Source: an uncultured virus (IMG/VR IMGVR_UViG_3300028048_003121) (Duplodnaviria > Heunggongvirae > Uroviricota > Caudoviricetes). Taken from it: DNA of 20,000 bases. Numbering within the stretch: the first letter of the stretch is position 1; the number at the start of each line of letters is the position of its first letter. Of the stretch, positions 66-20,000 are shown in pieces. A program made the translations under genes and the position numbers. The notes under the pieces were generated by a model. It had not been told where the DNA came from. It ran no database searches and saw only the letters and a program-made list of their open reading frames with translations. The DNA lies in IMG/VR virus record IMGVR_UViG_3300028048_003121; one strand, given 5' to 3'.

Positions 66-343
66 AAAAATAAAGTGAAACAATAATATAAAAAATATTG
101 CTGCACTGATGATGCAACAATATCGTTTTCTGAACCTAATACAAACGGTGTATAAACTTTATACCCCCTTCTATTAGTATTATATCCTGCTTTTTGCCAA
201 TTTTAGGCATAGAGGATGGTATTTAACTTTATTTTAACACTATTCGTGCTAAAATATAGGTAATCTGTTCCAAAATGGGCAAAATCCGTTCCAATCAGCG
301 TTGGTGACGCTGAAAACTCTCTGCCACTATTTCTTACGCGTCG

Positions 344-613
344 CCTGTTGTTCATCTTGTGTTTATCCTTGGTTTTTTGACGACATTTCCCTTTGCAAAG
401 TTAGGCAGACGGATGGGTCGCCAAGTACCGTACCTATTCTTTCTGAAATTGCCTGGAAGCCTTCCGCAGATTACTGCATAATCTGGGTATTCCATGAAAT
501 TTCCTCGGAATTACTTGTCTAATACTCATCCTATATACTGCCTTTTTTAAGGCAAAGGAAAAGTCTAAAACCCGAAAGGATATGCCGATGTTAAAAAAAA
601 GCTCCGCTACAGG
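344..613. promoter_or_regulatory. Long imperfect hairpin, putative ssDNA (Frpo-like) promoter, copy 1
   Basis: Nested pairs: CAGATTA 467-473/TAATCTG 479-485, CAAGTA 422-427/TACTTG 512-517, AGGCAG 403-408/CTGCCT 538-543, CCTTTGC 390-396/GCAAAGG 552-558, TATCCTT 364-370/AAGGATA 576-582, CCTGT 344-348/ACAGG 609-613; - strand TAACTTTG at 403-396. Confidence 0.7.
458..493 (+). repeat. 36-bp direct repeat (hairpin apex), copy 1
   Basis: AGCCTTCCGCAGATTACTGCATAATCTGGGTATTCC identical to 13377-13412. Confidence 0.95.
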
Positions 614-688
614 AGCCAGAGAAGAAAAAGGAAGTCTTTCCCTCAGTTCAATCCGATATATCACATATACGCAACAACAAATAACCCC

Positions 689-734
689 AACAAACACCGA
701 AGCCGACGGAATATAAACAGGCACCGAGAATATG
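689..734 (+). repeat. Conserved pre-start leader motif, copy 1
   Basis: 37/46 identical to 13785-13830; both end in AGAATATG start. Confidence 0.85.
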
Positions 735-1160: not shown

Positions 1161-1172
1161 TATAATATAGGT

Positions 1173-1995: not shown

Positions 1996-1996
1996 T

Positions 1997-2323: not shown

Positions 2324-2371
2324 CGTAAAACAGCCTATTTTGAAATTATTTTTGAAATAAATATTAAAATA

Positions 2372-2403
2372 TTTGCGTATTTCAAGAAATATTTATAACT
2401 TTG
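2372..2403 (+). promoter_or_regulatory. Bacteroidetes primary-sigma promoter for the 2437-12038 gene run
   Basis: TTTG (2372-2375) + 20 nt + TAACTTTG (2396-2403), consensus -33/-7. Confidence 0.85.
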
Positions 2404-2436
2404 CATACGAAAATACTAAAATAAGATATTTTACAC

Positions 2437-3758: not shown

Positions 3759-3794
3759 TATATAATAAGGTACAAACATATAAAGTCACTGATT

Positions 3795-4535
3795 ATGAAT
3801 AATAAGGTTGTCAAAACCAAGGCACAATGCCCAAAGACCTTTAATCGGGCTTTTGGTGTTCGCGAAATAGCACAGAAGATATGGGGTGAACTGAAAGTGT
3901 CAGACTCCTTTTCGTATCTCTATCGACGCTTTGGTGTTCCCTGTCTCGATACCAATAGCGAATACAAAATATCATATGAATACACTTTCTGGTATAAAGG
4001 GCTTTATTTCATCCTCTGCGGTACAACTCCAGATTTTGTATATCTGGACTGCTATTATCCGAAAAAATACTTCTGTCTACAACGTAACAGATACCGTAAG
4101 GATGTGCGAAACGTCTTTGAAAAGTCTTTGAAAGAGAATGTTCTGTGTTGGCCTTGGGCTTGTGGATTCTCACAGATATCTGATTCTTTGACGAAGAAAC
4201 AGTTAAAATCCTATAACACTAAGTTTGATGAAGAGGCACGGGTATTCTTTAGTAAAGAAGATTATAACTGGCTCGATTCCAGACAACATGTTAAACTCGA
4301 AGGAGCAGAAGCTGAAAAGTGTATGAATCTGATGGACGGTTTTTATAAATACTTACAGAATAAATTCAAGAAATGGGCTGGAAGCGATAAGGTCATCAAA
4401 ACTTTGTTCTGGTCTGATTACAATTTGAGATACCTTCCGGAAGTGGAGAAAATCGTTAAGGCTTTCTGTAAGGAAATGCTTAAAACGGAAAATATTCGGG
4501 ATTGTTCTATTAATATTCAGGGATGGCAGGAATGA
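3795..4535 (+). CDS. Hypothetical protein
   Basis: 246-aa ORF within the operon. Confidence 0.85.
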   Translation: MNNKVVKTKAQCPKTFNRAFGVREIAQKIWGELKVSDSFSYLYRRFGVPCLDTNSEYKISYEYTFWYKGLYFILCGTTPDFVYLDCYYPKKYFCLQRNRYRKDVRNVFEKSLKENVLCWPWACGFSQISDSLTKKQLKSYNTKFDEEARVFFSKEDYNWLDSRQHVKLEGAEAEKCMNLMDGFYKYLQNKFKKWAGSDKVIKTLFWSDYNLRYLPEVEKIVKAFCKEMLKTENIRDCSINIQGWQE

Positions 4536-4587
4536 ATTTCTACACATCCGTGGGGAAAATTATAGTGATAACCAAAATATAAAAATT

Positions 4588-6267
4588 ATGAATAAAATTA
4601 AGCTGTTATACATCGACCTTTTCTGTGGTGCCGGTGGCACGTCAACAGGTGTTGAACACGCCAAACTTTTCAATAAAAAATGTGCAAAGGTGGTGGCGTG
4701 TGTGAATCACGACGCTAACGCTATTGCGTCCCATCAGGCGAACCATCCCGACACGTTACATTTCACCGAGGACATCAGAACATTGGAACTTAGTCCGCTG
4801 GTGGCCCATCTTAAGAAGGTACGGAAGAAATACCCGGATGCTTACGTGGTATTGTGGGCCAGTCTGGAATGTACGAATTTCTCTAAAGCAAAGGGCGGTC
4901 AGCCGCGGGACGCGGATAGCCGTACCCTGGCTGAACACCTCTTCCGATATATCGAGGCTTTGCAGGTCGATTATATCCAGATTGAGAACGTCGAGGAGTT
5001 TATGAGTTGGGGGGATATGGATGAACACGGCCACCCAATCAGCAAAGACAAGGGCCGATGCTACCTGAAGTGGGTCAAGACCGTACAGCAATACGGCTAT
5101 GACTACGACTACCGCATTCTCAATGCAGCAGATTTCGGAGCATACACCTCCCGTAAACGTTTCTTCGGGCAGTTTGCCAAATGTGGACTGCCTATCGTGT
5201 TCCCCGTTCAGAGCTATGCCAAGAACGGCGACGAAGGCGGCATGTTCCATCAGTATAAGAAATGGAAACCTGTCCGTGAGGTGCTGGACTTGCAGGATGA
5301 AGGCAGCAGTATCTTCATGAAGAAAAAACCTCTCTGCGAAAAGACGCTGGAGCGTATCTTTGCCGGCTTGGTTAAATTCGTTGCTGGTGGCAAGAAAAAG
5401 TATGAGGACTTTATCTTGAAATATAACAGCATGAACAAGAGCGGACACTATCGTCCTGTTCCTACTGACGAACCGTGTCCTGTGGTAGCCACACAAAACC
5501 GACTGGGCTATGTCAAGCTGAATTTCCTCAGCAAGCAGTTCAGTGGCGACCCTGCCAGCAAGAACCAGTCCGTTGACAAACCGGCAGGCACCATTACCTG
5601 TGTCGATCACCATGCCTTCGTCACGGCATACTTCGGTAATGGCTTTAACAGCTCTATTGAAAGTCCGAGTCCTACTGTTACCACCAAGGAACGACATGCA
5701 CTTGTAAGCGTTGACCTGAACGAGCCGATGCCGGATGTTCCCTTGGATAAGGTAACCATTCAAACTAACCAGTTTCTCGCCAACGAATATAGCGGTGGCG
5801 GCCAGGTGGGGTCAATAGAAACGGTCAATCCTGCCGTTCTATGCAACCCGAAACAAAAACTGGTGTCGGCTGACCAGTACCTGATGAATCCTTATTCTTT
5901 CAAGAGTGACGGCGGTAGTATAGAGAATCCCTGCTTTACGCTGATAGCTCGCATGGATAAAATGCCGCCTTACCTGATTTCAACGGAGAAGGGAGAAATG
6001 GCAATAGCCATCTATGAGGAAGATTCTCCCATGACAAGGAAAATCAAGGAGTTTATGGCTGCATACGGCATCGTTGATATCAAGATGCGTATGCTGAACA
6101 TCCAGGAGCTGAAGCGTATCATGGGCTTCCCAGAGGACTATGTGCTGATAGGCACACAGGCAGAGCAGAAGAAATTCATCGGCAATGCCGTTGAAGTGAA
6201 TATGAGTCGAGTGCTTTGTGAGGCATTGTGTATGAAACTGTCGGACTATCAGAAAATGGCAATATGA
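4588..6267 (+). CDS. DNA (cytosine-5)-methyltransferase, orphan
   Basis: Motif I DLFCGAGG, motif IV SLECTNFS, motif VI IENV, motif VIII TSRKRFF, C-terminal MGFP.DY...IGNAV. Confidence 0.93.
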   Translation: MNKIKLLYIDLFCGAGGTSTGVEHAKLFNKKCAKVVACVNHDANAIASHQANHPDTLHFTEDIRTLELSPLVAHLKKVRKKYPDAYVVLWASLECTNFSKAKGGQPRDADSRTLAEHLFRYIEALQVDYIQIENVEEFMSWGDMDEHGHPISKDKGRCYLKWVKTVQQYGYDYDYRILNAADFGAYTSRKRFFGQFAKCGLPIVFPVQSYAKNGDEGGMFHQYKKWKPVREVLDLQDEGSSIFMKKKPLCEKTLERIFAGLVKFVAGGKKKYEDFILKYNSMNKSGHYRPVPTDEPCPVVATQNRLGYVKLNFLSKQFSGDPASKNQSVDKPAGTITCVDHHAFVTAYFGNGFNSSIESPSPTVTTKERHALVSVDLNEPMPDVPLDKVTIQTNQFLANEYSGGGQVGSIETVNPAVLCNPKQKLVSADQYLMNPYSFKSDGGSIENPCFTLIARMDKMPPYLISTEKGEMAIAIYEEDSPMTRKIKEFMAAYGIVDIKMRMLNIQELKRIMGFPEDYVLIGTQAEQKKFIGNAVEVNMSRVLCEALCMKLSDYQKMAI

Positions 6268-6827
6268 TAACTATACCGAAACATACTATTCCGACGTATA
6301 ACCCAAGTTCGACTGCTATCAATGAGCAGTCGGACTTCACGCGTCGTATTCCGTCATACCCTCCGAAGGTAAGGGTAAGGGTGGAAAAAGTTATTAAGCA
6401 GCTTATCCAGGCATACGACGTAGAGGAAAACCCAGAGAAAATGAAGGATATCTTTTTCAAAAAGGCAAGTCTCCTTCCTAATCCTACCTATTGGGAACTG
6501 CTACGCTCAGTATGGGTAGCTGCTGGTAGAGTTGATAATGTTCATGAGTTTATGCCGTTCTTTAAATCCAATAGACCCAGTAAGAATTGGTTTATGACTC
6601 CAGAGGACGCTACAGCATTTGATAAAATGGTTTTTCCATTGAAGGTATATCGGGCCTATAGCCAAGAACCGGATCCGGGAATATCATGGACTCTCGATGA
6701 ACAATGGTGCAAGGAATATGCTACTTTCAACGATAGACAAATTAAATCCCGCACCGTTATGCGTGAAGATGTTTTCGCCTATATCAGCAGACGAGGCGAA
6801 GAAGAGATAATCATTTTACCCAAATAA
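6264..6827 (+). CDS. Putative ADP-ribosyltransferase-fold protein (R-S-E class)
   Basis: ATGA coupling to the MTase; LKVYRA ... GISWTLD ... RGEEEIIIL. Confidence 0.6.
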   Translation: MITIPKHTIPTYNPSSTAINEQSDFTRRIPSYPPKVRVRVEKVIKQLIQAYDVEENPEKMKDIFFKKASLLPNPTYWELLRSVWVAAGRVDNVHEFMPFFKSNRPSKNWFMTPEDATAFDKMVFPLKVYRAYSQEPDPGISWTLDEQWCKEYATFNDRQIKSRTVMREDVFAYISRRGEEEIIILPK

Positions 6828-6828
6828 T

Positions 6829-7482
6829 ATGGCAGAGATAAAAATCACAAAGGATCTTCTGGTTCCTTTCGTTTCAAAAGATGAAACACGACCAGGACTG
6901 GCTGATGTTTTCCGTCAGCACGGATATGTTATAGCGTCAGACGGACACCTCTTGATAAGAGTGCCGGAGAATATGGTGGATGACCTGGAACAGATACCCG
7001 AACAAGGTCTTCCCAATACCGACAGTGTTATCCCAAAGGAATTGCCTTGGAATAAGCCAATAACCAAAGATTGCTTGATGAAAGCGCTGGCTAAAGCTCC
7101 CAAGGTGGAGGAAAAGGTAAGGTGTGAAGACTGTCACGGCTCTGGTAAGGTTGAATGGACTTACGAAGCCCAAAACGGCCATGAGTACACCGACACTTTT
7201 GAATGCCCTGTATGTCACGGCAAGGGTCATCATGGCGTGACGGGAAAACTGGTTCCAGATCCGCAACAACTCTATTCATTGGCTGGTGGAGCCATGAATC
7301 CGGAATGTCTGTATGATCTCATTCGTGTAATGGAAACATTTAAGGTAAAGAAGATGTCGCAACGCTCCTCTGATAACTTCAAGGCAATGTTTACTATCGG
7401 TGAAGTCCAAGTACTAAAGACATTTGTCATCATCGAAGGTGAAGACAAACCTCTACTGGATGAAATGATTAACATCAGATAA
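6829..7482 (+). CDS. Beta-clamp-like protein fragment with DnaJ-type zinc finger
   Basis: FVSKDETRP.L..V...IASDGHLL, PNTDSVIP; CEDCHGSG...CPVCHGKG. Confidence 0.6.
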   Translation: MAEIKITKDLLVPFVSKDETRPGLADVFRQHGYVIASDGHLLIRVPENMVDDLEQIPEQGLPNTDSVIPKELPWNKPITKDCLMKALAKAPKVEEKVRCEDCHGSGKVEWTYEAQNGHEYTDTFECPVCHGKGHHGVTGKLVPDPQQLYSLAGGAMNPECLYDLIRVMETFKVKKMSQRSSDNFKAMFTIGEVQVLKTFVIIEGEDKPLLDEMINIR

Positions 7483-7491
7483 ACTATCATA

Positions 7492-7806
7492 ATGGGCCAA
7501 CGCTATAGATATGAAGGTACTCCGGGCTGTTGCAGACCAACTCGTACATGGCGCAAATGGCTGATAGCCTATGAGGATGGCGAAGAGATATATGCCAAGA
7601 AAGGCTATATCCTCGACTTGGGTAAGCTAAGCATCCGGAGAGGACAGAATATCCATGTCTATGAAGAGACTATTACCCACATCATCAATCACAGAACACG
7701 CGAGATAGAGGTGAATAAGTTCAGAATAGAGATAACGGAACGCCTGAAGATGGAAATCAAAATTGAAAATTTAGATCGAAAACTTTTAAAAGAAAAAAGA
7801 ATATGA
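7492..7806 (+). CDS. Hypothetical protein
   Basis: 104-aa ORF tightly packed in the operon. Confidence 0.7.
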   Translation: MGQRYRYEGTPGCCRPTRTWRKWLIAYEDGEEIYAKKGYILDLGKLSIRRGQNIHVYEETITHIINHRTREIEVNKFRIEITERLKMEIKIENLDRKLLKEKRI

Positions 7807-7919
7807 ATATACTATCACTAATTATTGGTTGCACTCTTGGAAGCATTATAGGATATATTATAGCATATATCCAAGTCAGGTACGAGAATAAATCTAAACG
7901 GCAGAAAAGAAATGGATAA
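7803..7919 (+). CDS. Small single-TM peptide (38 aa)
   Basis: MNILSLIIGCTLGSIIGYIIAYIQVRYENKSKRQKRNG; ATGA overlap upstream and overlap with the next start; below the ORF-track cutoff. Confidence 0.6.
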   Translation: MNILSLIIGCTLGSIIGYIIAYIQVRYENKSKRQKRNG

Positions 7920-8265
7920 GATAATAACAAACATTACTATCGGAAACTGGTATCTGGTTAGAGAAAAACCTACCAGAATATCTCCGGCAAATGTTGTGTG
8001 GGCATTTCGGGATGGATGTTTTCCTATACCGCTGACAAGTGAAATACTGGAGAATAGCGGTATTCATAGAGAGGGAGGTGCCAGTTTCTGGCACGATGAA
8101 CATTATAGTATTGTATTTTTCTTCTGGAATGAGGAAAGAATAGAACTGATTATCAGTAAGAGAGGTGATGATCGTCCGTATATTGCAAAACTTGATGTAA
8201 AATACGTCGATCAACTACAAGATTTATTGAGAGTGTATAATATAAACTTAATGATTGAGTTATGA
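7912..8265 (+). CDS. Hypothetical phage-type protein (paralog of 9578-10030)
   Basis: PIPLTSEILE.SG ... VKYVDQLQ motif. Confidence 0.8.
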   Translation: MDKIITNITIGNWYLVREKPTRISPANVVWAFRDGCFPIPLTSEILENSGIHREGGASFWHDEHYSIVFFFWNEERIELIISKRGDDRPYIAKLDVKYVDQLQDLLRVYNINLMIEL

Positions 8266-9383
8266 AACTAAAGAAAATAGAAATAGATTCATGGTATATC
8301 TGTATTAAAGACATATATAACTCGGAGGGAAAAATAGAGTTCCAAAGTGGAAAAGTCTATCATGCACCTAAAGACAACTATCTGATCCGGGATGACAACG
8401 GTCAACCTGAGATAATCGGTGCATTTCTGATAGAACATTTCAAACTATGGTCAGTGAAAGATGCCAAGCCAGGAGATTTCCTGACATACAGCAGTGATGA
8501 ACATAAGGACTGGTATTTCATCTATCATAGCGAATACAAACCCTATGACAGTCATCATCATTACTTTGCCGGTTATTCAGACAAATTTCTTCCAGGAGGA
8601 ACGGCGTGTATCGATGAAGATGGCCTTCGTCCATCCACACATGAAGAATGTGACTTGCTCCTCCATAAAATAGAAGAGGCAGGATATCATTGGGATGCTG
8701 AAAACCACAAGCTGATAAAAAATAAAGAAGAGAATGAGGTGAAACAGAAAATGACGGATGAAGAGTCCATCATCCAATGCTTCGGCGAGTGGCAGCACGA
8801 GATGGTTCGAAAAACCGGCTTTGTTTATGGCTATATACGTCAGGTAGTCAGGAACTTCCTGAATGGCTTTGAAGAACCAGGTAATAACTACTTTAAGTGG
8901 GAAGTGACACACCTCATCGAAAAAGCTCTGCAGCATAAGGATGAGGGTGTAAAAGCCTACGCCCGTATGTTGGCCAAAAAATATAGTAAAGACGGACAAG
9001 ATAAATATGCAGACTGCATCTTGTCTGCCATCGGAGAAAAAGAAATACCAATGGCGACCATGGATGAGAGCACAGAGAGAATGACTGTCATCACTCTCTG
9101 TGGCAGTACTCGCTTCAAGGAGCAGTTCTTGGAACAGCAGAAACGATTGACCCTTGAAGGAAACGTCGTCATCAGCGTAGGCCTGTTCGGTCACTCCGGC
9201 GACGAAGAGGTTTGGAAACCAGGCATGAAAGAAATGCTGGATAAGATGCACTTCCAGAAGATCGACATGGCCGACGAGATATTTGTTATCAATGTCGGCG
9301 GTTATATTGGCGAGAGTACCAGGCGTGAGATTGCTCATGCAGAACAGACGGGTAAACCTGTACGATATTTGGAAAGTATATAA
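8262..9383 (+). CDS. Multidomain protein with C-terminal nucleoside 2-deoxyribosyltransferase-like domain
   Basis: C-terminal VITLCGSTRF...KIDMADEIFVIN.GGYIGEST.REI..A...GKPV; ATGA overlap start. Confidence 0.75.
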   Translation: MKLKKIEIDSWYICIKDIYNSEGKIEFQSGKVYHAPKDNYLIRDDNGQPEIIGAFLIEHFKLWSVKDAKPGDFLTYSSDEHKDWYFIYHSEYKPYDSHHHYFAGYSDKFLPGGTACIDEDGLRPSTHEECDLLLHKIEEAGYHWDAENHKLIKNKEENEVKQKMTDEESIIQCFGEWQHEMVRKTGFVYGYIRQVVRNFLNGFEEPGNNYFKWEVTHLIEKALQHKDEGVKAYARMLAKKYSKDGQDKYADCILSAIGEKEIPMATMDESTERMTVITLCGSTRFKEQFLEQQKRLTLEGNVVISVGLFGHSGDEEVWKPGMKEMLDKMHFQKIDMADEIFVINVGGYIGESTRREIAHAEQTGKPVRYLESI

Positions 9384-9413
9384 GGATTATATAACCATTA
9401 AATTATAGAAGAT

Positions 9414-9581
9414 ATGAGACTCTACGGAAGTATATGCCCCATCTATAATCGCGAGGTCAATGATGACTGCCGTCGATGCGGTCGCTTCTATTCCGGCAAC
9501 GCCACAGGAATAGAATGTGACAGTTCCCCAATGGATATTCCGAACATCCTTAAAGAGATTGGAAAGGAGGCTGGAGTATGA
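9414..9581 (+). CDS. Small Cys-rich protein (55 aa), possibly Zn-binding
   Basis: MRLYGSICPIYNREVNDDCRRCGRFYSGNATGIECDSSPMDIPNILKEIGKEAGV; ATGA overlap with 9578. Confidence 0.6.
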   Translation: MRLYGSICPIYNREVNDDCRRCGRFYSGNATGIECDSSPMDIPNILKEIGKEAGV

Positions 9582-10030
9582 CAATACAAGAACTGAAAAA
9601 GCTGATGATTGATGACTTCGTATATTCAAAGAAGCACAATCAGATAGTTCGGGTCTGGGCGGTACATCCCGGCTATATTCAGTGTTATGTCAACGGCATC
9701 CTGACAGAAGTCGGTAACGACGATGTAGAACCCATCAGGCTTACAGACGAGTTTCTGAAGAAACTTGGATTCAAGCCTCGCAGGGATATTGGCTGGGAGG
9801 ATAGAGACTTGTTCTACTGGGAAGGTGATAGGGTTTATGCCAGACTTATTCCTACCAGTTATAAGATCAGCAGTTGGTATGACTTGAAAATCGAGTCGAT
9901 AGACTCTGACGATCTGCGTCGGGGTGACTTGCGCCGTACAATGGTGAAGTATGTGCATGAAATGCAGCAGGCCTTTCGGTTTAACTATATCGATAAGGAA
10001 TTTAACTTAACGACGAAAAATAGCATATGA
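9578..10030 (+). CDS. Hypothetical phage-type protein (paralog of 7912-8265)
   Basis: PIRLTDEFLKKLGF ... VKYVHEMQ motif. Confidence 0.85.
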   Translation: MTIQELKKLMIDDFVYSKKHNQIVRVWAVHPGYIQCYVNGILTEVGNDDVEPIRLTDEFLKKLGFKPRRDIGWEDRDLFYWEGDRVYARLIPTSYKISSWYDLKIESIDSDDLRRGDLRRTMVKYVHEMQQAFRFNYIDKEFNLTTKNSI

Positions 10031-10251
10031 CTAACAAAAAAAAGTATATCAAAAATGAAAAATGTAATCCAACAAAGACGGATTGGGTGGTATTTGTTTT
10101 GTCGGTGTTGTTCACTATTCTTACTTGTGACCATATAACAAAATGTATTGGAGAATGGTTCAAAATCATTTCTTGCATTATTGTTCTTCTCGGTGCCTTT
10201 TATTTTGTCACCAGATTATTTTGCTTTTGGGTAAAGGAAATGACATCGTAA
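10027..10251 (+). CDS. Small two-TM membrane protein
   Basis: Two hydrophobic stretches; ATGA overlap. Confidence 0.65.
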   Translation: MTNKKKYIKNEKCNPTKTDWVVFVLSVLFTILTCDHITKCIGEWFKIISCIIVLLGAFYFVTRLFCFWVKEMTS

Positions 10252-10309
10252 CGTATGACTGACGAGGGCTTTGAAAGAGAAATAAAGGAAAATAAACTGG
10301 TCTGACAAT

Positions 10310-10633
10310 ATGGTAAAGAAAAATATATACTTGAAAAACGGAACGCTGTTCGCCACAGGCTACAACCGTATCGTCCATGGTGGACGGGGCGACTATGTAG
10401 AGTTTGAGCGCGACCAGATTGTACCAAAGCTAAGATCTAAATTCGGGAACAAACCGACGGACGATTTGGATATATACTACTGGTGGCTCGTACCTGAGAC
10501 TGACCCTGAAACAAAAGTATATTTTCAGAAGAAAACGGTCAAATACGCCGACTATAAAATCGGGAAATACTACGTTGATCCGTATCTCCTGAAGGATTTC
10601 AAAGACCCGGAACAACTGTTTAACTACGAATAA
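10310..10633 (+). CDS. Conserved hypothetical protein
   Basis: 107-aa ORF, GYNRIVHGGRGDYVEF...VKYADYK.G.YY. Confidence 0.85.
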   Translation: MVKKNIYLKNGTLFATGYNRIVHGGRGDYVEFERDQIVPKLRSKFGNKPTDDLDIYYWWLVPETDPETKVYFQKKTVKYADYKIGKYYVDPYLLKDFKDPEQLFNYE

Positions 10634-10647
10634 ATTTGTTATCTGTC

Positions 10648-11535
10648 ATGGGCGTATTGAGAAAACAAACAACAGTAAAGAGTGAACCGCTGACTGAACA
10701 GTCAATACAGCGGCGGTTGAATCATGTCTTCGCTTCCTGGAAATACAATATTGACGGGCTGTTTGTCTTCGAGTGGGAGTCAGACAAACTCATTTGGACG
10801 AAGACAGGCTACATATATGAGTTTGAAATCAAAATCAGCCGTGCTGACTTCAAAAACGACTTCAAAAATAAAAAAGAGAAGCATATCATCCTGAAAGGCC
10901 CGACGGAGGAGGAGCGTTTCATGCCGTCGTTCTATCAGAGCTACGAATGGAACAAACACCTGTATAATTCCATTGATGACTGTAAGGCAAGAATAAAGCC
11001 TGGTGACAGTCATCTGATAGAAAGCCACAAGAAACCAAACTACTTCTATTACGCTGTTCCAGAAGGGCTGATACAGCCGGAAGATGTTCCTGAGTATGCA
11101 GGTCTGATATACATCCTGAAGGAATATCACTATGAACGTCAAAGTTACGTCATAGTGAAAAAGGCACCTTGCCTGCATAAGCAGAAATACAAGGATGGTG
11201 AGCTTAACCTCGCTGAGAAATTCTGGTGGAACTGGCAGAGTGACCGCCGCTTGCGGCAAGAGGCCCAACGGGAACGTGACGATGCACGTAAGGCCTTACA
11301 AGAGGAACTTGCTGAGCATCAGCAAGAAGAAACCTACCAGTCCCTTAAATGGAAATACAAGGTGGCCAGCTCAGAGAGGGACGAATATCAGTCACTTTAT
11401 TCTGCCAAATGCCGTGACCAGAATATCGACAGGATGATCATCCGCAAGCTACGCCATGAGCTGCTACAACTTAAACCAGACTTCGACTACAAAGTAATCG
11501 AAGCGGAATGTGAGAAAATCTATGGTATCAAGTGA
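10648..11535 (+). CDS. MmcB-like PD-(D/E)XK nuclease-fold protein with C-terminal coiled coil
   Basis: WESD...YEFEIKISRADF..DF, PNYFYYAVP..LI...VP.YAGL; ATG at 10648. Confidence 0.75.
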   Translation: MGVLRKQTTVKSEPLTEQSIQRRLNHVFASWKYNIDGLFVFEWESDKLIWTKTGYIYEFEIKISRADFKNDFKNKKEKHIILKGPTEEERFMPSFYQSYEWNKHLYNSIDDCKARIKPGDSHLIESHKKPNYFYYAVPEGLIQPEDVPEYAGLIYILKEYHYERQSYVIVKKAPCLHKQKYKDGELNLAEKFWWNWQSDRRLRQEAQRERDDARKALQEELAEHQQEETYQSLKWKYKVASSERDEYQSLYSAKCRDQNIDRMIIRKLRHELLQLKPDFDYKVIEAECEKIYGIK

Positions 11536-11561
11536 CACCAAATCCCTTTTTTGTTGGTTTA

Positions 11562-12038
11562 ATGGAAAAAATGACCTATGACAAGCTCAAAAAGCTGGAA
11601 GCTGAACACCAGCGTCACCGTCAGGCGAAAAAACGCCTGAAGGTATACTATGGGTGGAGCAAAATTAACAAGATACAGAAACGCGAGGCTATTGCCGTCG
11701 CCTTTGAAAATGAAGAGGGTGCTGGATGGAAAAACAGCAGGTCTGGCAAGTCACTCAGAAAGACGATGACTGTCTGCTATGAACGATACCAGACGGAAAA
11801 GGAAATGTCGGATGCTGCCGCTTATAACAGGGTATTCACCGTCTATTACGTCTTTCTGGATGACAAGGCTGTAAAAGGCAGCCTAAACCGTGCCTTACAG
11901 ATCAACTCAGAGAGTGATAAGAACCATGTCACAAGTTCTGAACGGAAGCTTATATCTGAGGCCCTGGAAAGATCTTTCATGGCCTCACACATCGGCTACA
12001 AAGAGCCGACGCGACAACTGGAGCTGCAGTTTAAATAA
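11562..12038 (+). CDS. Hypothetical protein
   Basis: ATG 11562 (or GTG 11532); last gene of the + run. Confidence 0.8.
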   Translation: MEKMTYDKLKKLEAEHQRHRQAKKRLKVYYGWSKINKIQKREAIAVAFENEEGAGWKNSRSGKSLRKTMTVCYERYQTEKEMSDAAAYNRVFTVYYVFLDDKAVKGSLNRALQINSESDKNHVTSSERKLISEALERSFMASHIGYKEPTRQLELQFK

Positions 12039-12041
12039 CCA

Positions 12042-12810
12042 TGGAAGGGGTGATGGCTCACCATCTGTAGCATACCAGGACGATGACCGCATCAGTCTGT
12101 CACAAGACCACAAGGAAGTCTGTCTTAACGTAACCAGCCTATGGACTATATCCTTATTCCGCTGCCTCACATTACACCGAGGAATGCCAGAAAACCTGCC
12201 ACCTCACGGTGTTTTTCATCGGCATACGTTGTGTGCTGATGAAAAAATTATGTGGTCAACAAAACAAGGATGTACCCCATGAACGGCGCTACTAACAGAT
12301 TTTTTCGATGGACTTGCACCAGGCTGACGCCTTATGGTCAACACACCTGAATATCCTACAGCATCGTCGTAAACGATGAACCTTCCACTTGACATTCTTT
12401 CATACGACATGGGAGCCTTGTTTCTCTCACAACACCAGCGTGACCTTATCGATGGCTGAAGAATATACAGCATGCGTATCTATTCTGAGGGTACTCGCTA
12501 CCTGTAGACAGAGAGTTATCATGTCATCCTGTTCTGAATGGCACTTGCCTATGGGAAACAAGTATTACATACACATTTCCCATTGAGGCAGACAAGGTCT
12601 GCTTCACCGGCAAGAAAGCTATTCAGGGATGAAATAACAACACTCCTTACTTTGGATAGGGAGCACTCTCTTCTTTAAAGCGGTAGATGCTGTATGTTCA
12701 TCAGCACATCCGGCCACTTTTAGACTCTATTGTTCAGAAAAAGGCCTCCAGAACTATCGCCCACACCGAAGCACACGGACAGTACTCAATGAGCAACTAT
12801 CCGAGGCTTC
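12042..12810. ncRNA. Large multi-hairpin non-coding element (putative large ncRNA or structured ssDNA site); strand unresolved
   Basis: No credible ORF; more than 12 helices seen by eye, including 12042-48/12381-87, 12092-99/12320-27, 12213-27/12231-45, 12534-42/12618-26, 12551-58/12576-83, 12585-93/12597-605. Confidence 0.55.
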
Positions 12811-12818
12811 ACCCAGCC

Positions 12819-12862
12819 CTTTCTTACCCACACATTTAAGCTTTCTTCCCTACAGATTTAAA
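12819..12862 (+). repeat. Tandem 2 x 22-bp imperfect repeat
   Basis: CTTTCTTACCCACACATTTAAG / CTTTCTTCCCTACAGATTTAAA, 18/22 identical. Confidence 0.7.
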
Positions 12863-12868
12863 CCGTTC

Positions 12869-13087
12869 TCATCGGAGAAGATGAGAACGGATAATGAGAA
12901 CCTTATCGTTCAGGTACTTGCTACCGTCGATAGAAAGACTTGCACGAAGATGACCTTCGCAGCAACCTATATCATCAATACTGAACTTCTTGAAGACGGC
13001 ATGTACGCTGCCGAAATAATAGTTGGCATGACCGTGGATGAAATGGACATGCACAACCTTTGGGAGTTGTTTTCCGTCGATAACCAT
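12869..13087 (-). CDS. Small conserved hypothetical protein of Bacteroidales mobile elements
   Basis: KVVHVH....NYYFGSV.A.F...I.SHLLR; own -7 box 24 nt upstream. Confidence 0.8.
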   Translation of the reverse strand: MVIDGKQLPKVVHVHFIHGHANYYFGSVHAVFKKFSIDDIGCCEGHLRASLSIDGSKYLNDKVLIIRSHLLR

Positions 13088-13110
13088 AAGCTTGATCTCC
13101 TATTTTTCTG

Positions 13111-13118
13111 CAAAGATA
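13111..13118 (-). promoter_or_regulatory. Bacteroidetes -7 box for the 72-aa gene
   Basis: TATCTTTG(CA) on the - strand; part of inverted repeat AAAGATAGC/GCTATCTTT. Confidence 0.7.
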
Positions 13119-13237
13119 GCAAATAAATACTATAAAGCTATCTTTTAGTGCAGAATTTTAGGATAAAATAACCATTCTATATAACATATAGTACCTATAT
13201 GTAAGGATATTGCTTTTACAAAAGCATTTTCCCTTGC

Positions 13238-13546
13238 GGATTTCCATCGTGCCACCTGCCCTACAGAATACCCATCGACGTTGACTGTTTTTTCACGCCG
13301 TTTTCCCTTGCAAAGGTATGGAGAGGCAGGCTATCGCCAATGAACAGGCTAAAGTATCGGCATAAAAAGCTCAGGCAGCCTTCCGCAGATTACTGCATAA
13401 TCTGGGTATTCCTGATTTTTTACTTGATATTCCTTGGCTTATAGCCTTTAGAACCTCTCCCTGATATACCGGCAAGAAAAAAGGCTAAAACAGTGAAACG
13501 ATGTACCGATGAGTTCTTTGAAAGGGTGGTGACAGATGAAAAATTC
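13238..13546. promoter_or_regulatory. Long imperfect hairpin, putative ssDNA (Frpo-like) promoter, copy 2
   Basis: Pairs: CAGATTA/TAATCTG 13386-13404, TCAGG 13371-75/CCTGA 13411-15, AGGCTAT 13328-34/ATAGCCT 13441-47, GGAGAGG 13320-26/CCTCTCC 13454-60, CTTGC 13307-11/GCAAG 13472-76, ACTGTTT 13284-90/AAACAGT 13488-94; - strand TACCTTTG at 13318-13311. Confidence 0.7.
13377..13412 (+). repeat. 36-bp direct repeat (hairpin apex), copy 2
   Basis: Identical to 458-493. Confidence 0.95.
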
Positions 13547-13631
13547 CAAAAAAAGAAAATAAGGACTTTCAGCTCTCGATACCCGATAAGTTCAATAACA
13601 ACAGCGCAACAAAAGAATAGGAGGATTGAAT

Positions 13632-13772
13632 ATGAAAAAGTCATTTAACCAGATAGCAGCTCAACTGGAGCGTATCTACAAGCTTTACTACAAGGGCTTC
13701 GGTACAAAGACATTACTGGAGAAGGCAGAAAAGTGCATGTACGGCATACAGAACGTAGGACTGTGCTTCTGA
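13632..13772 (+). CDS. Small basic protein (46 aa)
   Basis: MKKSFNQIAAQLERIYKLYYKGFGTKTLLEKAEKCMYGIQNVGLCF; GAATATG start context with GGAGG upstream. Confidence 0.65.
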   Translation: MKKSFNQIAAQLERIYKLYYKGFGTKTLLEKAEKCMYGIQNVGLCF

Positions 13773-13784
13773 CATCTAACAATA

Positions 13785-13830
13785 AACAAACAGCGGAGGC
13801 GGCGCGATATAAACAGCCACAAAGAATATG
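13785..13830 (+). repeat. Conserved pre-start leader motif, copy 2
   Basis: 37/46 identical to 689-734. Confidence 0.85.
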
Positions 13831-14403
13831 AAGAAATATAATATCTATCAGATCAAGAACGACTCACAGGTTGCTCGTGGCATCAAATTTTCCGGACTGG
13901 AAGAGCTGGAGAAATACAACCTACGTAGCCAACTGACCCTCGACATCTATCAAAAGGTCTATACCGGCGAGATAGAGGATGGCGACATATTGGTAATGCT
14001 GGATCGTATCTTCTCGAAGTTCCAGGGGAAAAAGCCTGCTGACTTTACAGGTCATAGCGTCAGCGTATCAGATATGGTGGAAATGGACGGTAAGTACTAT
14101 TATTGCGACCATTACACATGGAAGAAAATCACTTTCACTGAGACTAAGACAACAGAAACTCCAGAAAAGGATCTCTACAGTGAGGTGGCAGATATCCTAA
14201 AGGAAGGTAACCTCTATGGTGACATCAATACCTACGATAACCAGGTGGAGGTCAGTATCGAATGGGGTGACTGGAAACACGAACATGGCTATCTTCGCTA
14301 TCTCATGGAACAGAAAGGCTTCGTTGAGACCAACGAGGAAATCACTGAAGAGGATGGTAGCGACTGCTACTCAGCAGTACACACCTTCAAAAAGGCAGCA
14401 TAA
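13828..14403 (+). CDS. YodL-domain protein fused to an acidic C-terminal domain
   Basis: YNIYQIK...Y.KVY.G...L..IF..F....P.DF.GHS.SVSD.V...YYCD. Confidence 0.8.
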   Translation: MKKYNIYQIKNDSQVARGIKFSGLEELEKYNLRSQLTLDIYQKVYTGEIEDGDILVMLDRIFSKFQGKKPADFTGHSVSVSDMVEMDGKYYYCDHYTWKKITFTETKTTETPEKDLYSEVADILKEGNLYGDINTYDNQVEVSIEWGDWKHEHGYLRYLMEQKGFVETNEEITEEDGSDCYSAVHTFKKAA

Positions 14404-14408
14404 CATAT

Positions 14409-14440
14409 AAAGGTAACGGGAGCCTAACCAACTCCCACTA
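14409..14440 (+). repeat. Post-gene GGGAG-CTAACCA-CTCCC hairpin motif, copy 2
   Basis: AAAGGTAACGGGAGCCTAACCAACTCCCACTA, similar to 1127-1160. Confidence 0.85.
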
Positions 14441-14454
14441 AAAACTTACGTCAT

Positions 14455-14613
14455 ATGAATAACAACAATGCAATCTACAGGGAACTATGGTTCGTGGCAC
14501 CAGTTTTCAAGTGGCTGGACAAACATCCGCTCATCTCAGACATCATCCTGGTTCTGGAAGGCTTGGCAACAGCCTGGGCAGTGTTTAACTATAACTTTAC
14601 AACCAATTTCTGA
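14455..14613 (+). CDS. Small hydrophobic protein (52 aa)
   Basis: MNNNNAIYRELWFVAPVFKWLDKHPLISDIILVLEGLATAWAVFNYNFTTNF; follows the post-gene motif as ORF 1173 does. Confidence 0.65.
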   Translation: MNNNNAIYRELWFVAPVFKWLDKHPLISDIILVLEGLATAWAVFNYNFTTNF

Positions 14614-14721
14614 CGAAAACGGTCTTAAATGAGTTAAATCAAGACAAAGTTTTGAGAATATTCTGAAAGTCAGATAAATAGTGATAATTTCGCAGAGTAA
14701 TAACTTAAAAAAAACAAGAAT

Positions 14722-15168
14722 ATGTTTAGTGGAAGTTTTTTAGGCCGTTGTGGCAAGGACGCCGAGATCTTAACAGGCGCATCAGGTGAACAGTATGTGG
14801 CATTGAATGTCGCAGAGTCTTATTATTCCAAGGGAGAAACCCTGACACGATGGTACAAAGTCTATGCCAGCTTCCCAAGAGCACTGAAACTGGCTCAGTA
14901 CTGGAAGAAAGGCAGACTCCTGGAAGTTGTTGGCGAACTGGTAAAGCATAACATCTATGAGGACAAGGATGGCAAGCCACAGCTTCAATTGGTGGTGAAC
15001 GCCTTCCGTGTGGAATTTCCACCAGTCGGCAAGAAAAGAGATGAACAGACCGGTGAACAGAAGAGCAGTACACCGCCTCCTGTCTCTGAGGAGGATGTTA
15101 ACAATACACCTCAGATGCCTTTCGAGGCTCCTGCAGGTGGCGAGGGTAACGATGATCTTCCCTTCTAA
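14722..15168 (+). CDS. ssb: Single-stranded DNA-binding protein
   Basis: OB-fold LGR.G.DAE...T.W.....KKG..V.V.G.L; acidic tail DDLPF. Confidence 0.92.
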   Translation: MFSGSFLGRCGKDAEILTGASGEQYVALNVAESYYSKGETLTRWYKVYASFPRALKLAQYWKKGRLLEVVGELVKHNIYEDKDGKPQLQLVVNAFRVEFPPVGKKRDEQTGEQKSSTPPPVSEEDVNNTPQMPFEAPAGGEGNDDLPF

Positions 15169-15205
15169 GAACACCTACTTACAGTAGAATGTCTATCGAG
15201 GCCTC

Positions 15206-15240
15206 GGACGCTGAGCCAGTGGAATCAGCGTCCACTTTCT
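15206..15240 (+). terminator. GC-rich hairpin after ssb (weak terminator or processing site)
   Basis: GGACGCTGA 15206-14/TCAGCGTCC 15225-33 followed by ACTTTCT. Confidence 0.45.
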
Positions 15241-15254
15241 AAAAACAATCAGAT

Positions 15255-15572
15255 ATGAATAAGGAAGAATTTAATCAGAAACTCGGACGGCTACAGGAAA
15301 TCATTGCTGAAGCCAGGGAAATTATCAGCTCTTTGGAAGAGTTCTGCAAAGAGAATAATGAGCTGGCATATACACCTGTAGCATCTCTTGCTATAGCCCA
15401 AGGTGGGCTACAAACAAAATATTTGAACGTCTGCAGCAATGCTGGCATCAAAAATATCCAGCAGCTTATGGACGTTGGCTACAACAACTTTAAGAAATAC
15501 CGGAATAGCGGCAAGATGACGGCTGACCTGGTCAGGAAAGCCTTATGGGAACAATATCATATAGAATGGTAA
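15255..15572 (+). CDS. RNA polymerase alpha-CTD-like (HhH) domain protein
   Basis: L.TK.LNVCSNAGIKNI.QL......FKKYRNSGK.T...V..AL. Confidence 0.7.
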   Translation: MNKEEFNQKLGRLQEIIAEAREIISSLEEFCKENNELAYTPVASLAIAQGGLQTKYLNVCSNAGIKNIQQLMDVGYNNFKKYRNSGKMTADLVRKALWEQYHIEW

Positions 15573-15955
15573 AGAAATCTGGTATGGAATATTTCCGCGT
15601 CATCATAGCCGGTGGTCGTGACTTTAACGACTATCCACTGCTGAAAGCCAAATGTGACAACATCCTGGCAGATAAAACCGCTACACACCGTATCATAGTC
15701 GTGTCTGGAGCGGCCAAGGGAGCTGACAGCCTGGGCGAGCAGTATGCCCGTGAGAAGGGCTATACTGTAGAACAATATCCGGCTGACTGGAATACACACG
15801 GCAGGGCGGCTGGTCCCATCCGTAATGCTCAGATGGCGAACAGCGCCGATGCCCTGATAGCCTTCTGGGATGGCCAGAGCAAAGGCACGAAGAGTATGAT
15901 AAACATAGCCAAGACAAAAGGATTGGGCGTAAGAGTAATAAGCTACACTATATAA
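15566..15955 (+). CDS. SLOG-family (DUF2493/YspA-like) protein
   Basis: IIAGGRDF.DY, VSGAAKGAD, ADW..HG.AAGPIRN.QM, AFWDG.SKGT; start 15566 or 15584. Confidence 0.88.
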   Translation: MVKKSGMEYFRVIIAGGRDFNDYPLLKAKCDNILADKTATHRIIVVSGAAKGADSLGEQYAREKGYTVEQYPADWNTHGRAAGPIRNAQMANSADALIAFWDGQSKGTKSMINIAKTKGLGVRVISYTI

Positions 15956-16014
15956 TTTTCTCGAAATATTGTATTTTTCAGCATATAATTTTCATCAAAA
16001 ATTGTATTTTTACT

Positions 16015-16476
16015 ATGAATAGAATCACAGAGAGATACTGGTTCCGGGCAAAGGTGCTACACCATGACCCAAAAACAAATCCTGAAAACGGATGGGTACA
16101 GGGCTTCTACTATCAAGACCTGTGCGGTGGAGAGATCAAACATTTCATCCGTTCAGGGGAAATGGTATGGGAAATCGATCCGAAGACATTAGGAATGTTT
16201 ACCGGCTTCTATGACAATAGCACAGAGCCACAGCCTATCTTTGAAGGCGACATCCTTCATACGCTCTTCAAGGATAACGGCAGCAGCTATGACCTGGTAG
16301 GCTGGAACCCGAAAAATGGTTGCTTCGGCATCATGGATGATATAGACTATAACGCCAGAATGGAGGGTGAGGAGGATTACTACTCCTATGAAGCCTTTGC
16401 TTGGATGCACCAGAAAAAAGTTCAGTCGGTAGTAGCTGGAAACGTCCACGAGAATGCAGACCTGATGACACAATAA
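16015..16476 (+). CDS. YopX-family protein
   Basis: FRAK...WV.G...IDP.TLG.FTG..D....IFEGDI...V.GNVHEN.DL. Confidence 0.85.
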   Translation: MNRITERYWFRAKVLHHDPKTNPENGWVQGFYYQDLCGGEIKHFIRSGEMVWEIDPKTLGMFTGFYDNSTEPQPIFEGDILHTLFKDNGSSYDLVGWNPKNGCFGIMDDIDYNARMEGEEDYYSYEAFAWMHQKKVQSVVAGNVHENADLMTQ

Positions 16477-16495
16477 TAATTAAATCCAATATAAC

Positions 16496-16915
16496 ATGAA
16501 GATCCTGATTATTGAAGACAGTGAACTGAAACGCAAAGATATCGAGCGTTTCATGAAAGAGAACTTCCCCGATGCGGATGTCACGACGGCGGCATCTTAC
16601 AGCTCCGGACTGCGTAAGGCCTACAAAGGGGAATTTGACGTTGTCATCCTCGACAACAGCCTTCCTTACTATGAGGACAGACCGTATGACATCCAGCCGG
16701 ACATGGCACGCAATATCCTGGAAGAAATAGAAGAGATACCGCCACAGAAGAGACCTCGGTGTATCATCTGCTCACAGTACGACGGAAACACCAAGGAAGA
16801 CTACTTCCGTCATATTACAGAACAATATGACTACTGCATCGGATATATACAGTATGACAACTGCTCGTCAGAATGGGAAGAGAAGCTGAAGACAATGATA
16901 AAAGGTAACGGCTAA
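16496..16915 (+). CDS. Stand-alone response regulator receiver domain
   Basis: KILIIED, FDVVILDNSLP (phospho-Asp), IICS. Confidence 0.85.
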   Translation: MKILIIEDSELKRKDIERFMKENFPDADVTTAASYSSGLRKAYKGEFDVVILDNSLPYYEDRPYDIQPDMARNILEEIEEIPPQKRPRCIICSQYDGNTKEDYFRHITEQYDYCIGYIQYDNCSSEWEEKLKTMIKGNG

Positions 16916-16921
16916 GAGACT

Positions 16922-17176
16922 ATGGATGAGAAGAAGATATACTTACCGGATGCTGAGACGGCTGGTAAACTGATAGAAAACGCCTGGCAGGAGTTCTGCG
17001 ACCAGATGAAGGAAAACGACATGGACTTCACAGGAACAAAGGTCGAAGAGCTGCTGCATGACGTGTTTGTCGCCGGTTATGCCTTCGGACATAACGACTG
17101 TCTGGCCATTATCCGCGACCAACTCTCCATCGACAACTGGATGAAATACACCAGTACGATGAACAAGAGTTCGTAA
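16922..17176 (+). CDS. Hypothetical protein
   Basis: 84-aa ORF ending the + run. Confidence 0.75.
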   Translation: MDEKKIYLPDAETAGKLIENAWQEFCDQMKENDMDFTGTKVEELLHDVFVAGYAFGHNDCLAIIRDQLSIDNWMKYTSTMNKSS

Positions 17177-19416: not shown

Positions 19417-20000
19417 TCTTCCTTTATTCCTAACAAATCATTAAAATAACCTTCTTTGAATACATCGAGGATATCTGAGTCCTCACAACAGGAAGGACAC
19501 GATAAACAATAACCGCTGTCAGAAAGCTGCATACCTTCCTCTATCTTTATCTTTTTCTCCTTATAGCAGATGTAGACATCGTAGCAGGCGATTTCCTTCA
19601 GGTAGAATGTCATCAGCGCAAGCTGGGATGTAACAATCGGCGTTATTCCTATACTTATAGCGTGACTGGCTTGTATATAATCATAATAGCCGACCGCTCC
19701 ACGATTATCCAGCATCTGCTTTGTGTATGACTCAATATCGACACAGAAATAGATCTCTTTCTGTTTTGGAGTTTCTTCGATAAGAATCCAAAGGGAATCG
19801 GCCCCATTGAGACTGACGCCGTCATCCTTATAAAAACAACAGTCATCAGTGTCACCGTCATCAATGACGGCAAGAATTGAACAACGTCCACGACAGTTCC
19901 ATTTAACTATCTCGACGGGTTCTCCCATATCAGTGACAACCCTGTACTCCCCAGACTCTATCTGAGGACGATACTGTAAATCAAAGGGTATTCTTTTCAT
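19413..20000 (-). CDS. Hypothetical protein (phage-type N-terminal domain)
   Basis: 195 aa, ATG at the window edge; IPFD....I.SG...VVT..G.PV.I..W. Confidence 0.8.
   Translation of the reverse strand: MKRIPFDLQYRPQIESGEYRVVTDMGEPVEIVKWNCRGRCSILAVIDDGDTDDCCFYKDDGVSLNGADSLWILIEETPKQKEIYFCVDIESYTKQMLDNRGAVGYYDYIQASHAISIGITPIVTSQLALMTFYLKEIACYDVYICYKEKKIKIEEGMQLSDSGYCLSCPSCCEDSDILDVFKEGYFNDLLGIKEE

Follow-up and report, generated by a model that had tools for sequence, protein, structure and literature searches.

The element described here lies at positions 12042-12810 of a DNA stretch from an uncultured virus of the Caudoviricetes (IMG/VR record IMGVR_UViG_3300028048_003121); "the window" denotes the whole stretch that was analysed, with a length of 20,000 nt. 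The element consists of two tandem imperfect-hairpin rods plus a small hairpin, and is not one ornate molecule of 770 nt. Within each rod, the pairing is what is conserved. A different type of long hairpin, called rod 3, is present directly upstream of each plus-strand gene array in the window and carries a -7 promoter box on its minus strand. Tentatively, and with a confidence that stays below even, rods 1 and 2 are read as folded single-stranded DNA (ssDNA) signals on the minus strand, which would accompany the rod-3-type hairpins, the latter being promoters by analogy. The long-hairpin family is undescribed and is missing from Rfam and from the phage and plasmid collections.

Structure of the non-coding element

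Folding was tested against dinucleotide shuffles (n = 20), with both RNA and DNA parameters. As RNA, the region 12042-12810 reaches -268.6 kcal/mol on the plus strand (shuffle mean -197.0; z -9.59) and -308.8 kcal/mol on the minus strand (shuffle mean -227.1; z -10.58), with 0 of 20 shuffles as good on either strand. With DNA parameters, z is -6.63 on the plus and -6.80 on the minus strand. An earlier note, made from the letters alone, had called this gap highly structured, and the RNA values (z -9.59 and -10.58) bear this out. No credible reading frame was found in 12042-12810. The parts of the element are as follows.

12042..12387, minus strand: rod 1, a 346-nt imperfect hairpin with apical hairpins at 12174-12212 and 12213-12246 (from minimum free energy, MFE, structures)
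12404..12760 (about), minus strand: rod 2, an imperfect hairpin of ~357 nt with a homology core at 12432-12735 (from MFE structures and counterparts)
12768..12810, no strand assigned: a separate 43-nt hairpin, present in all four folds

The MFE structures contain all four long-range helices and both capping hairpins of the rod that the earlier note had drawn as its Domain 1, as well as its capped rod at 12534-12626 with hairpins 12551-83 and 12585-605. Its Domains 2 and 3, kept apart there, turn out to be the arms and apex of the single rod 2 (~12404-12760); of the three trailing hairpins that it listed, 12768-12810 is indeed separate, but most of them belong to rod 2. The apex of rod 2 is formed by hairpin C (12551-12583), which holds the conserved ACAAGTAT..CATACACAT, and hairpin D (12584-12606).

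When aligned against each other, the arms of the rods show just 65-70% complementarity, with transversions and indels. For rod 1, this alignment gives 92 Watson-Crick positions, 16 A.C mismatches on the plus strand (which are G.T on the minus strand), 6 plus-strand G.T mismatches, 12 transversions and 21 indels. The co-occurrence of G.T-type and A.C-type mismatches had been noticed before and is seen here as well. The MFE structures contain 22 G.U pairs on the plus strand versus 32 on the minus strand. In the DNA-parameter folds, each rod (346 and ~357 nt) is a long, stable, imperfect stem-loop on one DNA strand.

The convergent flanks were described correctly: the upstream gene ends at 12038 and a 72-aa minus-strand gene lies at 12869-13087. 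The region is not the only long gap, as had been claimed, since 13088-13631 and 1-731 are likewise non-coding and contain long hairpins.

Relatives of the rods and conservation of pairing

The nearest genome is G001, an uncultured Prevotella metagenome-assembled genome (MAG), of which contig C5 (167 kb) holds a 98% identical copy of the element. Related elements were sought by means of the flanking genes.

11532..12038, plus strand: P0002, 168 aa, the last gene of plus-strand array 1 and the query for related elements
12869..13087, minus strand: P0001, 72 aa, phrog_10608 (E 5e-12), convergent with the upstream array

Homologues of P0002 were found at 12 loci and of P0001, which has 17 unnamed homologue clusters, at 1 viral locus. 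Most of them lack the element, so the rods are not tied to P0001 or P0002. A sliding MFE scan of the related loci used 300-nt stretches, which is too short to reveal rods of 350 nt. At locus L005 (65% protein identity), a gap follows the P0002 homologue, which is missing at most other homologues. This gap holds a 327-nt rod (L005:4712-5038) with two capping hairpins and folding z values of -4.8 and -4.5. The L005 rod and rod 2 have short blocks in common, namely ACAAGTAT..CATACACAT, TCACCG and GGATGA-N7-ACACTCCTT, and rod 2 and its L005-type counterpart are roughly 55-60% identical. No more than these short blocks is shared, yet in each case a rod of ~330 nt is retained. With nhmmer, rods 1 and 2 show no significant similarity to the L005-type rod or to the rod-3 type.

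Further relatives of rod 2 were sought with a pattern built from the blocks that it shares with the L005 rod. No viral contig matched this pattern. Among metagenome contigs it matched at 24 loci, 5 of the window type and 19 of the L005 type. The window-type loci are 96.9-98.3% identical over all 769 nt, and the L005-type loci are 88-97% identical to the L005 rod. Rod 1 is found only in the window-type copies (97-98% identity), and nhmmer gave no further relative of it.

For the analysis of pairing, 20 distinct full-length sequences were aligned (6 window-type, 14 L005-type), leaving out 5 exact duplicates and 2 partial copies. RNAalifold predicts 47 consensus pairs on the joint alignment; in 16 of these, both partners change and the pairing is retained. 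At these consensus pairs, 98.3% of the cells are paired, compared to 40-47% when the partners are slid by 1-3 columns; the slid controls yield 2-6 two-sided pairs versus 16 in the true register. All two-sided changes separate the two clades and hence represent one evolutionary contrast per pair, and the outer stems are poorly aligned by MAFFT and thus under-counted. Within the clades, variation at paired sites looks near random, with only 2 variable pairs of two Watson-Crick types in the L005 type.

Several signals favour the minus strand weakly, none of them being significant alone. On the joint alignment, the consensus energy is -32.4 for the minus versus -25.0 for the plus strand, with 53 versus 47 pairs and 20 versus 16 two-sided changes, and one 6-pair helix forms on the minus strand only. 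The mismatches of rod 1 lean the same way, with 16 A.C versus 6 G.T on the plus strand. For 22 substitution sites, taken from G001 and an RNA-library variant, the minus structure keeps its pairing at 7 of 11 paired sites and the plus structure at 3 of 10. In the union of plus and minus consensus pairs, the L005 type counts 137 G.T versus 129 A.C cells and the window type 53 versus 54, both read on the plus strand. The energies within each clade are almost equal between the strands.

The rod-3 type and its -7 box

Two hairpins of the rod-3 type are present in the window.

13234..13613, minus strand: rod 3, a different long-hairpin type, with the minus-strand box TACCTTTG at 13318-13311 in the left arm, a conserved apex at 13385-13404 and a plus-strand ATG at 13632
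331..700, minus strand: a diverged rod-3-type copy upstream of the first plus-strand array, with the minus-strand box TAACTTTG at 403-396 and an ATG at 732

Rod 3 folds as a rod of ~290 nt inside a 741-nt segment (z -5.0 and -4.5). The apex of this type is near-invariant (CCTTCCGCAGATTACTnCATAATCTGGGTATTCC) and its motif occurs in 1 of 401 family genomes. With nhmmer, the rod-3 type is found twice in L005 and also in L047, L025, L027 and L057. The layout of L005, at 65% protein identity, is that of the window: a rod-3-type hairpin, an array, a rod, P0001 on the minus strand, a second rod-3-type hairpin and an array. G001 contains four copies in a single orientation, of which two are 100% identical over 371 nt and lie 33 kb apart, and two are diverged.

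The sequence TTGCAAAnnTA is kept at the same place of the left arm in 9 of 10 members, and both n positions vary. On the minus strand it reads TAnnTTTG, which is described as the -7 consensus of sigma-ABfr (PMC7366714). The box is part of the stem in the two window copies, where some of it is unpaired, in an internal loop. In the folded minus strand it occupies the 3′ arm and runs from the apex toward the base, while in double-stranded DNA it faces the other way. Beyond the right end of the profile alignment, a plus-strand open reading frame (ORF) with an ATG and at least 40 codons opens in 10 of 10 members, at a distance of 4-51 nt in 9 of them; the gap of 192 nt in L057 arises where the alignment stops well inside the rod. 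Among the genes downstream are a small ORF at the start of the YodL/SSB array, the gene that heads the methylase array, an RnlB-like gene and a DNA polymerase III beta-clamp gene. No perfect TAnnTTTG box is present on the plus strand in 1-731 or 11900-13900.

Of the two identical G001 copies, the first is the cognate of rod 3 in the window. The second has a C11 peptidase gene on one side and an RnlB-antitoxin-like gene on the other; a reverse transcriptase is nearby, and a Mob_Pre relaxase follows 12 kb downstream in the same direction. The region around it (C5:105-123 kb; L055, L056) is a second mobile or defence-like region, with the Mob_Pre relaxase, a BsuBI/PstI-type restriction-modification pair, the reverse transcriptase, the C11 peptidase and the RnlB-antitoxin-like gene. 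At L057 (C5:25.4-28.4 kb), a rod-3-type hairpin is present upstream of a full-length beta-clamp gene of 380 aa that has all three Pfam domains.

Although short motifs (D1 and D2) are shared among rods 1, 2 and 3, nhmmer detects no significant similarity of rods 1 and 2 to the rod-3 type, and paralogy of the three is not claimed.

The carrier and its gene content

The carrier of the rods is an integrative mobile element of rumen Prevotellaceae. Homologues of P0002 occur in further Prevotellaceae MAGs, in one Bacteroides and in 8 IMG/VR contigs, and the sequencing runs that contain the element derive from bovine and sheep gut samples. The G001 counterpart is flanked by a tyrosine-integrase-like gene and topoisomerase III. 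Two long plus-strand gene arrays are found in the window (732-12038 and 13632-17176). Their products include a PAPS-reductase-like protein, a C5 methylase, YodL, SSB, a YAcAr/SLOG protein and YopX, and a convergent ParA operon follows. The genes are on the same strand and of leading-region type. As a set, SSB, the C5 methylase, the PAPS-reductase-like protein, YodL, YopX and ParA resemble the establishment or leading regions of transferred DNA, by analogy of gene content.

Within array 1, an AT-rich hairpin at 2330-2420, ahead of the PAPS-reductase-like gene, holds two perfect plus-strand TAnnTTTG boxes (2347 and 2396), which are probably an ordinary internal promoter of this array. Just after the YodL-like gene, a stretch of ~32 nt (14405-14436) is found in RNA-library contigs of all four runs with unrelated sequence on either side; it may be a short conserved or repeated module common to many contexts.

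The L005-type rod as a cassette in varied flanks

The L005-type rod has sharp edges, GG[TC]ACACCGCTC ... GAGCGACTATAT[AG]CC, and its third base covaries with its partner, being T-A in one flank context and C-G in another. It occurs in at least 3 left and 3 right flank contexts, with recombinant combinations of flanks in L033 and L036. In one of these contexts it is part of a non-coding array of 1.4 kb, a short way downstream of a tyrosine integrase gene. The same slot is empty in L004, where the homologues of P0002 and P0001 are 21 nt apart and no rod is present, holds one rod in L005 and holds two in the window. The rods are missing as well in L015, which has a P0001 homologue. Homologues of P0001 adjoin rods in L005, L047, L044 and L048; in the context labelled B the rods are present and P0001 is missing. 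The counterpart of rod 2 is found without rod 1.

At the junctions of 17 L005-type and 4 rod-3 copies, neither a flanking direct repeat or target-site duplication nor a terminal inverted repeat beyond the hairpin itself was found. Rods 1 and 2 occur once in G001, and the L005-type rod once in G799. The orientation of the rods relative to the flanking genes is constant in the contexts seen. In the variants L047, L044, L034 and L037 of the context labelled A, ~320 nt extra, including a 109-aa minus-strand ORF, is inserted between the P0002 homologue and the rod, which makes the slot between the two convergent genes a hot-spot for varied insertions.

The P0001 locus and its coverage in RNA libraries

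Two features border the small convergent gene.

12861..12891, minus strand: a hairpin over the P0001 stop codon, followed by TTTAAAT on the minus strand (read from the sequence; possibly a weak terminator)
13098..13163, minus strand: a palindrome with 19-bp arms that lies across the promoter of P0001 and includes the minus-strand -7 box TATCTTTG (13118-13111)

A terminator scan returned 0 terminator-like sites in 11900-13900 versus 1.5 expected, and the hairpin at 12861-12891 was not called. Weak T-rich stretches follow rod 1 on the minus strand and this hairpin. The plus-strand mirror of the box in the palindrome is TATCTTTT, and the palindrome looks like an operator. In the E-value mode of Rfam it is picked up on both strands as a weak miRNA-like hairpin.

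The RNA-library data are Logan contigs, which give no strand, ends or local depth and may stem from DNA present in the libraries. In one bovine sample (two runs), contigs span 12090-12998 at a depth of 14.5 and 12478-13094 at a depth of 9.4; over the end of array 1 the depth is 2-4, and 10634-11705 has none. The rods and P0001 are thus covered deeper than the neighbouring genes. In X16, the depth falls from right to left, starting at the P0001 side (9.4, 4.1, 3.8). Two runs of other studies, one of sheep gut and another of a gut metagenome (X17, X18), contain only fragments of the rods, at a depth of 2-3, and nothing on habitat or expression level is concluded from them. At 13094, a contig ends shortly downstream of the perfect minus-strand -7 box TATCTTTG. 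Most simply, these contigs would reflect a minus-strand transcript that runs from the P0001 promoter through the rods.

Comparison with known systems

Frpo1 and Frpo2 of the F plasmid are described as dispersed stem-loops, 92% identical and ~5 kb apart, upstream of leading genes (PMC9849209). Their stem-loop rebuilds the promoter boxes of the host sigma factor (PMC9849209; PMC11541004). In the sources consulted, the literature on ssDNA promoters deals with enterobacterial plasmids and the Bacillus plasmid pLS20, with none found for Bacteroidota, and in the available text of Samuel et al. 2024 (PMC11541004) the string 'Bacteroid' occurs 0 times. Frpo and ssi of the leading regions of F and ColIb-P9 are likewise long, imperfect stem-loops of one strand, dispersed as near-identical copies in same-strand arrays of establishment genes (ssb, anti-restriction). 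The Frpo geometry, with a box rebuilt in the stem and reading from apex to base toward the downstream genes, is found in the rod-3 type but not in rods 1 and 2. There are other differences as well: blastn detects no sequence similarity with Frpo or ssi among 72,556 plasmids, the host here belongs to the Bacteroidota with their different -33/-7 promoter logic, and those leading regions are conjugative, whereas no origin of transfer (oriT), relaxase or transfer genes were identified for the present element.

Single-strand origins (sso) of rolling-circle plasmids, and sso1 of ICEBs1, are non-coding regions with extensive intrastrand pairing at which complementary-strand synthesis starts, on one strand only. 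They are accessory and exchangeable between replicons. Each rod described here is longer, and no known sso motif or similarity was found in it.

The large ornate RNAs of Rfam (ROOL, GOLLD, OLE, HEARO, raiA) are likewise large, structured, non-coding, associated with mobile DNA and seen in rumen or gut metagenomes and RNA libraries. They differ in that no covariance model matches here at the gathering score and that their multi-domain fold contrasts with two simple rods. Foldback repeats and MITEs (miniature inverted-repeat transposable elements; ERIC, Correia, RPE-like) resemble the rods in being intergenic, non-coding, hairpin-forming, sharp-edged, present or absent at a given site and co-transcribed with their neighbours. 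Compared to these, the rods are several times longer, have a low copy number, a fixed orientation and no visible target duplications, and between diverged clades it is two-sided changes that keep their pairing intact.

Weighing the possible roles

The ssDNA reading is ranked first on account of the setting, the neighbouring Frpo-like modules, the rod shape, the helices that tolerate A.C as readily as G.U, and the lean toward the minus strand. An ssDNA signal was one of the options of the earlier note; it moves to the front on evidence that is indirect, namely gene content, Frpo-like neighbouring hairpins and the weak minus-strand lean, but the counterpart has no recognised relaxase or transfer genes and rods 1 and 2 have no box. 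Rods 1 and 2 occupy a hot-spot that is bounded by the final gene of a plus-strand array on one side and by a small convergent gene on the other. The minus strand is the template strand of both gene arrays, and under this reading the rods would fold when it is single-stranded. They could then be start sites for complementary-strand synthesis, or blocks that end transcription of array 1 on the single-stranded template, and they would work beside the rod-3-type hairpins in front of each array. In the latter, as in the Frpo arrangement, the box would point into the array only in the folded strand; a polymerase that initiates at this box would transcribe the 5′ arm and leave rightwards into the plus-sense genes. 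The data themselves show that the region is structured, that paired changes conserve this structure, that the counterpart of rod 2 behaves as a cassette, that the rods occur in RNA libraries, and where the box of the rod-3 type lies and how well it is kept. We infer here that the element passes through a single-stranded stage, that it is the minus strand which does so, and that rods 1 and 2 have an activity at all.

A number of observations weigh against this. Rods 1 and 2 contain no perfect TAnnTTTG box on either strand in 12039-12868 and, by nhmmer, are unlike the rod-3 type; without a box and without detectable relation, they are not promoters of the rod-3 kind. In the G001 counterpart element (C5:134-167 kb), neither a relaxase nor a type IV secretion gene could be recognised, and the PF03432 and PF01076 matches in G001 fall outside it, the closest at C5:106 kb, so that the single-stranded stage is an assumption. 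The strand preference is weak, with near-symmetric wobble counts. The gene immediately to the right of the rods is on the opposite strand in the window and in context A. The second rod-3 copy of G001 lies inside a 6-kb RNA-library contig, so its locus is not silent in resident cells. The presence of the rods in RNA libraries above the depth of the flanking genes is explained more simply by a role as RNA. The rods are dispensable, as L004 and L015 do without them. The assumed single-stranded stage and this dispensability are the weakest points.

The RNA-library data are best fitted by an RNA acting in cis, a somewhat doubtful but serious alternative, which accounts least well for the mismatch pattern and the size of the rods. 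The minus-strand transcript of P0001 would end in the rods as a long, structured tail at its 3′ side, and array 1, in mirror fashion, would end in them too; there they would stop or insulate convergent transcription and shield the transcripts against 3′ exonucleases. This agrees with the high depth over the rods and P0001 compared to the low depth over the end of array 1, with the leftward fall in X16, with the contig end at 13094 just past the -7 box, with the order of P0001 and then a rod, which L005 and L047 share at 65% protein identity, and with the weak preference for the minus strand. Moreover, a palindrome serves both transcripts, which would explain why no wobble type dominates. However, the contigs are silent on strand, ends and local depth, and DNA in the libraries could give the same picture. 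Two rods of ~350 nt go far beyond the needs of termination, in a region (11900-13900) with 0 terminator sites, and within the helices A.C mismatches are no rarer than G.U, which one would not usually expect of an RNA under selection. Context B has rods without P0001, while L004, with both flanking genes, and L015, with P0001, have no rods. If the rods are RNA at all, they look more like a tail at the 3′ end of the P0001 transcript than like an RNA gene of their own. The latter, a free-standing, trans-acting large ornate non-coding RNA (ncRNA), was the favoured option of the earlier note and is now very improbable. The region is indeed new and structured, with conserved pairing and absent from Rfam, but it falls into two tandem rods, and the counterpart of rod 2 is a separable, sharp-edged cassette. 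The extreme folding z, the missing Rfam match, the conserved apex motifs and the occurrence in RNA libraries of three studies would suit such an RNA. They have to be set against the lack of an own promoter box on either strand of 12039-12868, the two rods being separable cassettes with a rod 2 counterpart that lacks rod 1, a shape that is rod-like and not compact and multi-branched, wobble usage that is symmetric between the strands, and the absence of the region in the related element L004.

It is unlikely that the rods are selfish foldback (MITE-like) elements of intergenic hot-spots without a role for the carrier, of which the pairing is kept for their own movement. Such a nature would account for the sharp edges, the at least three flank contexts and the recombinant flanks of L033 and L036, as well as for a site that is empty in L004, filled by one rod in L005 and by two in the window. 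It would also fit the duplication of rod 3 in G001 (two copies that are 100% identical over 371 nt at a distance of 33 kb, and two more that have diverged) and the near-random substitutions at paired sites within clades. On the other hand, the junctions reveal no target-site duplication and no terminal inverted repeat beyond the hairpin, the copy number is low (the rod-3 apex motif being found in 1 of 401 family genomes), and the orientation relative to neighbouring genes is constant wherever seen. Conserved apex blocks and 16 paired changes persist across ~45% divergence. No transposase was noticed next to any copy, although this was not searched systematically. The four readings overlap in part and are not fully exclusive.

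Taken further, the ssDNA reading leads to a picture that is doubtful as a whole, in which the window would carry the complete system by which a Bacteroidota element is expressed and established from a single strand. The rod-3 type would then represent the first Frpo-like ssDNA promoters built on a sigma-ABfr -7 box, placed before each early-gene array (methylase, SSB, beta-clamp, antitoxin). Rods 1 and 2 would assist them without being promoters, by priming or delimiting synthesis on the same incoming minus strand, and all would be cassettes exchanged among rumen Prevotellaceae elements. The first gene expression and second-strand synthesis of DNA that enters Bacteroidota are little understood, and hairpin cassettes of ~350 nt, one type of which has a conserved Bacteroidetes -7 box in Frpo geometry, offer concrete sequences for testing. 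If the RNA reading holds, unusually long structured 3′ tails would be exchanged as cassettes between mobile elements. Under either reading, the hairpin family accounts for several large 'empty' gaps in these elements.

Database searches and other structured regions

At the gathering score, the search of the whole window against 4227 Rfam families gave 0 matches. In E-value mode (E up to 10), 8 sub-threshold matches to unrelated families appeared, the best one inside the element scoring 15.5 bits versus a threshold of 37 bits. Group II introns, retrons and omega or bridge RNAs were dropped, as Rfam gave no matches and their partner genes are not next to the rods. By blastn and megablast, no match was found in 50,697 phage or 72,556 plasmid records (near and distant mode for the plasmids). 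Against 401 order-level genomes, the element has 2 matches, G001 and one of 27 nt. Against 401 family-level genomes it has 8 matches at E <= 0.01, with G001 as the only real copy. Of the other 7, which are short, 3 were inspected (L017, L018, L021), lack a comparable hairpin and look protein-coding, and are regarded as chance; the other 4 were only folded.

Strong structure is not limited to the gaps. A folding scan in 200-nt stretches, which is noisy with its 12 shuffles per stretch, also indicated structure at 19801-20000, 1901-2200, 11101-11300 and 11601-11900, with z down to -6.9. Some of these structured stretches fall within predicted genes, such as the inverted repeat 11750-11765 / 11849-11864 in P0002.

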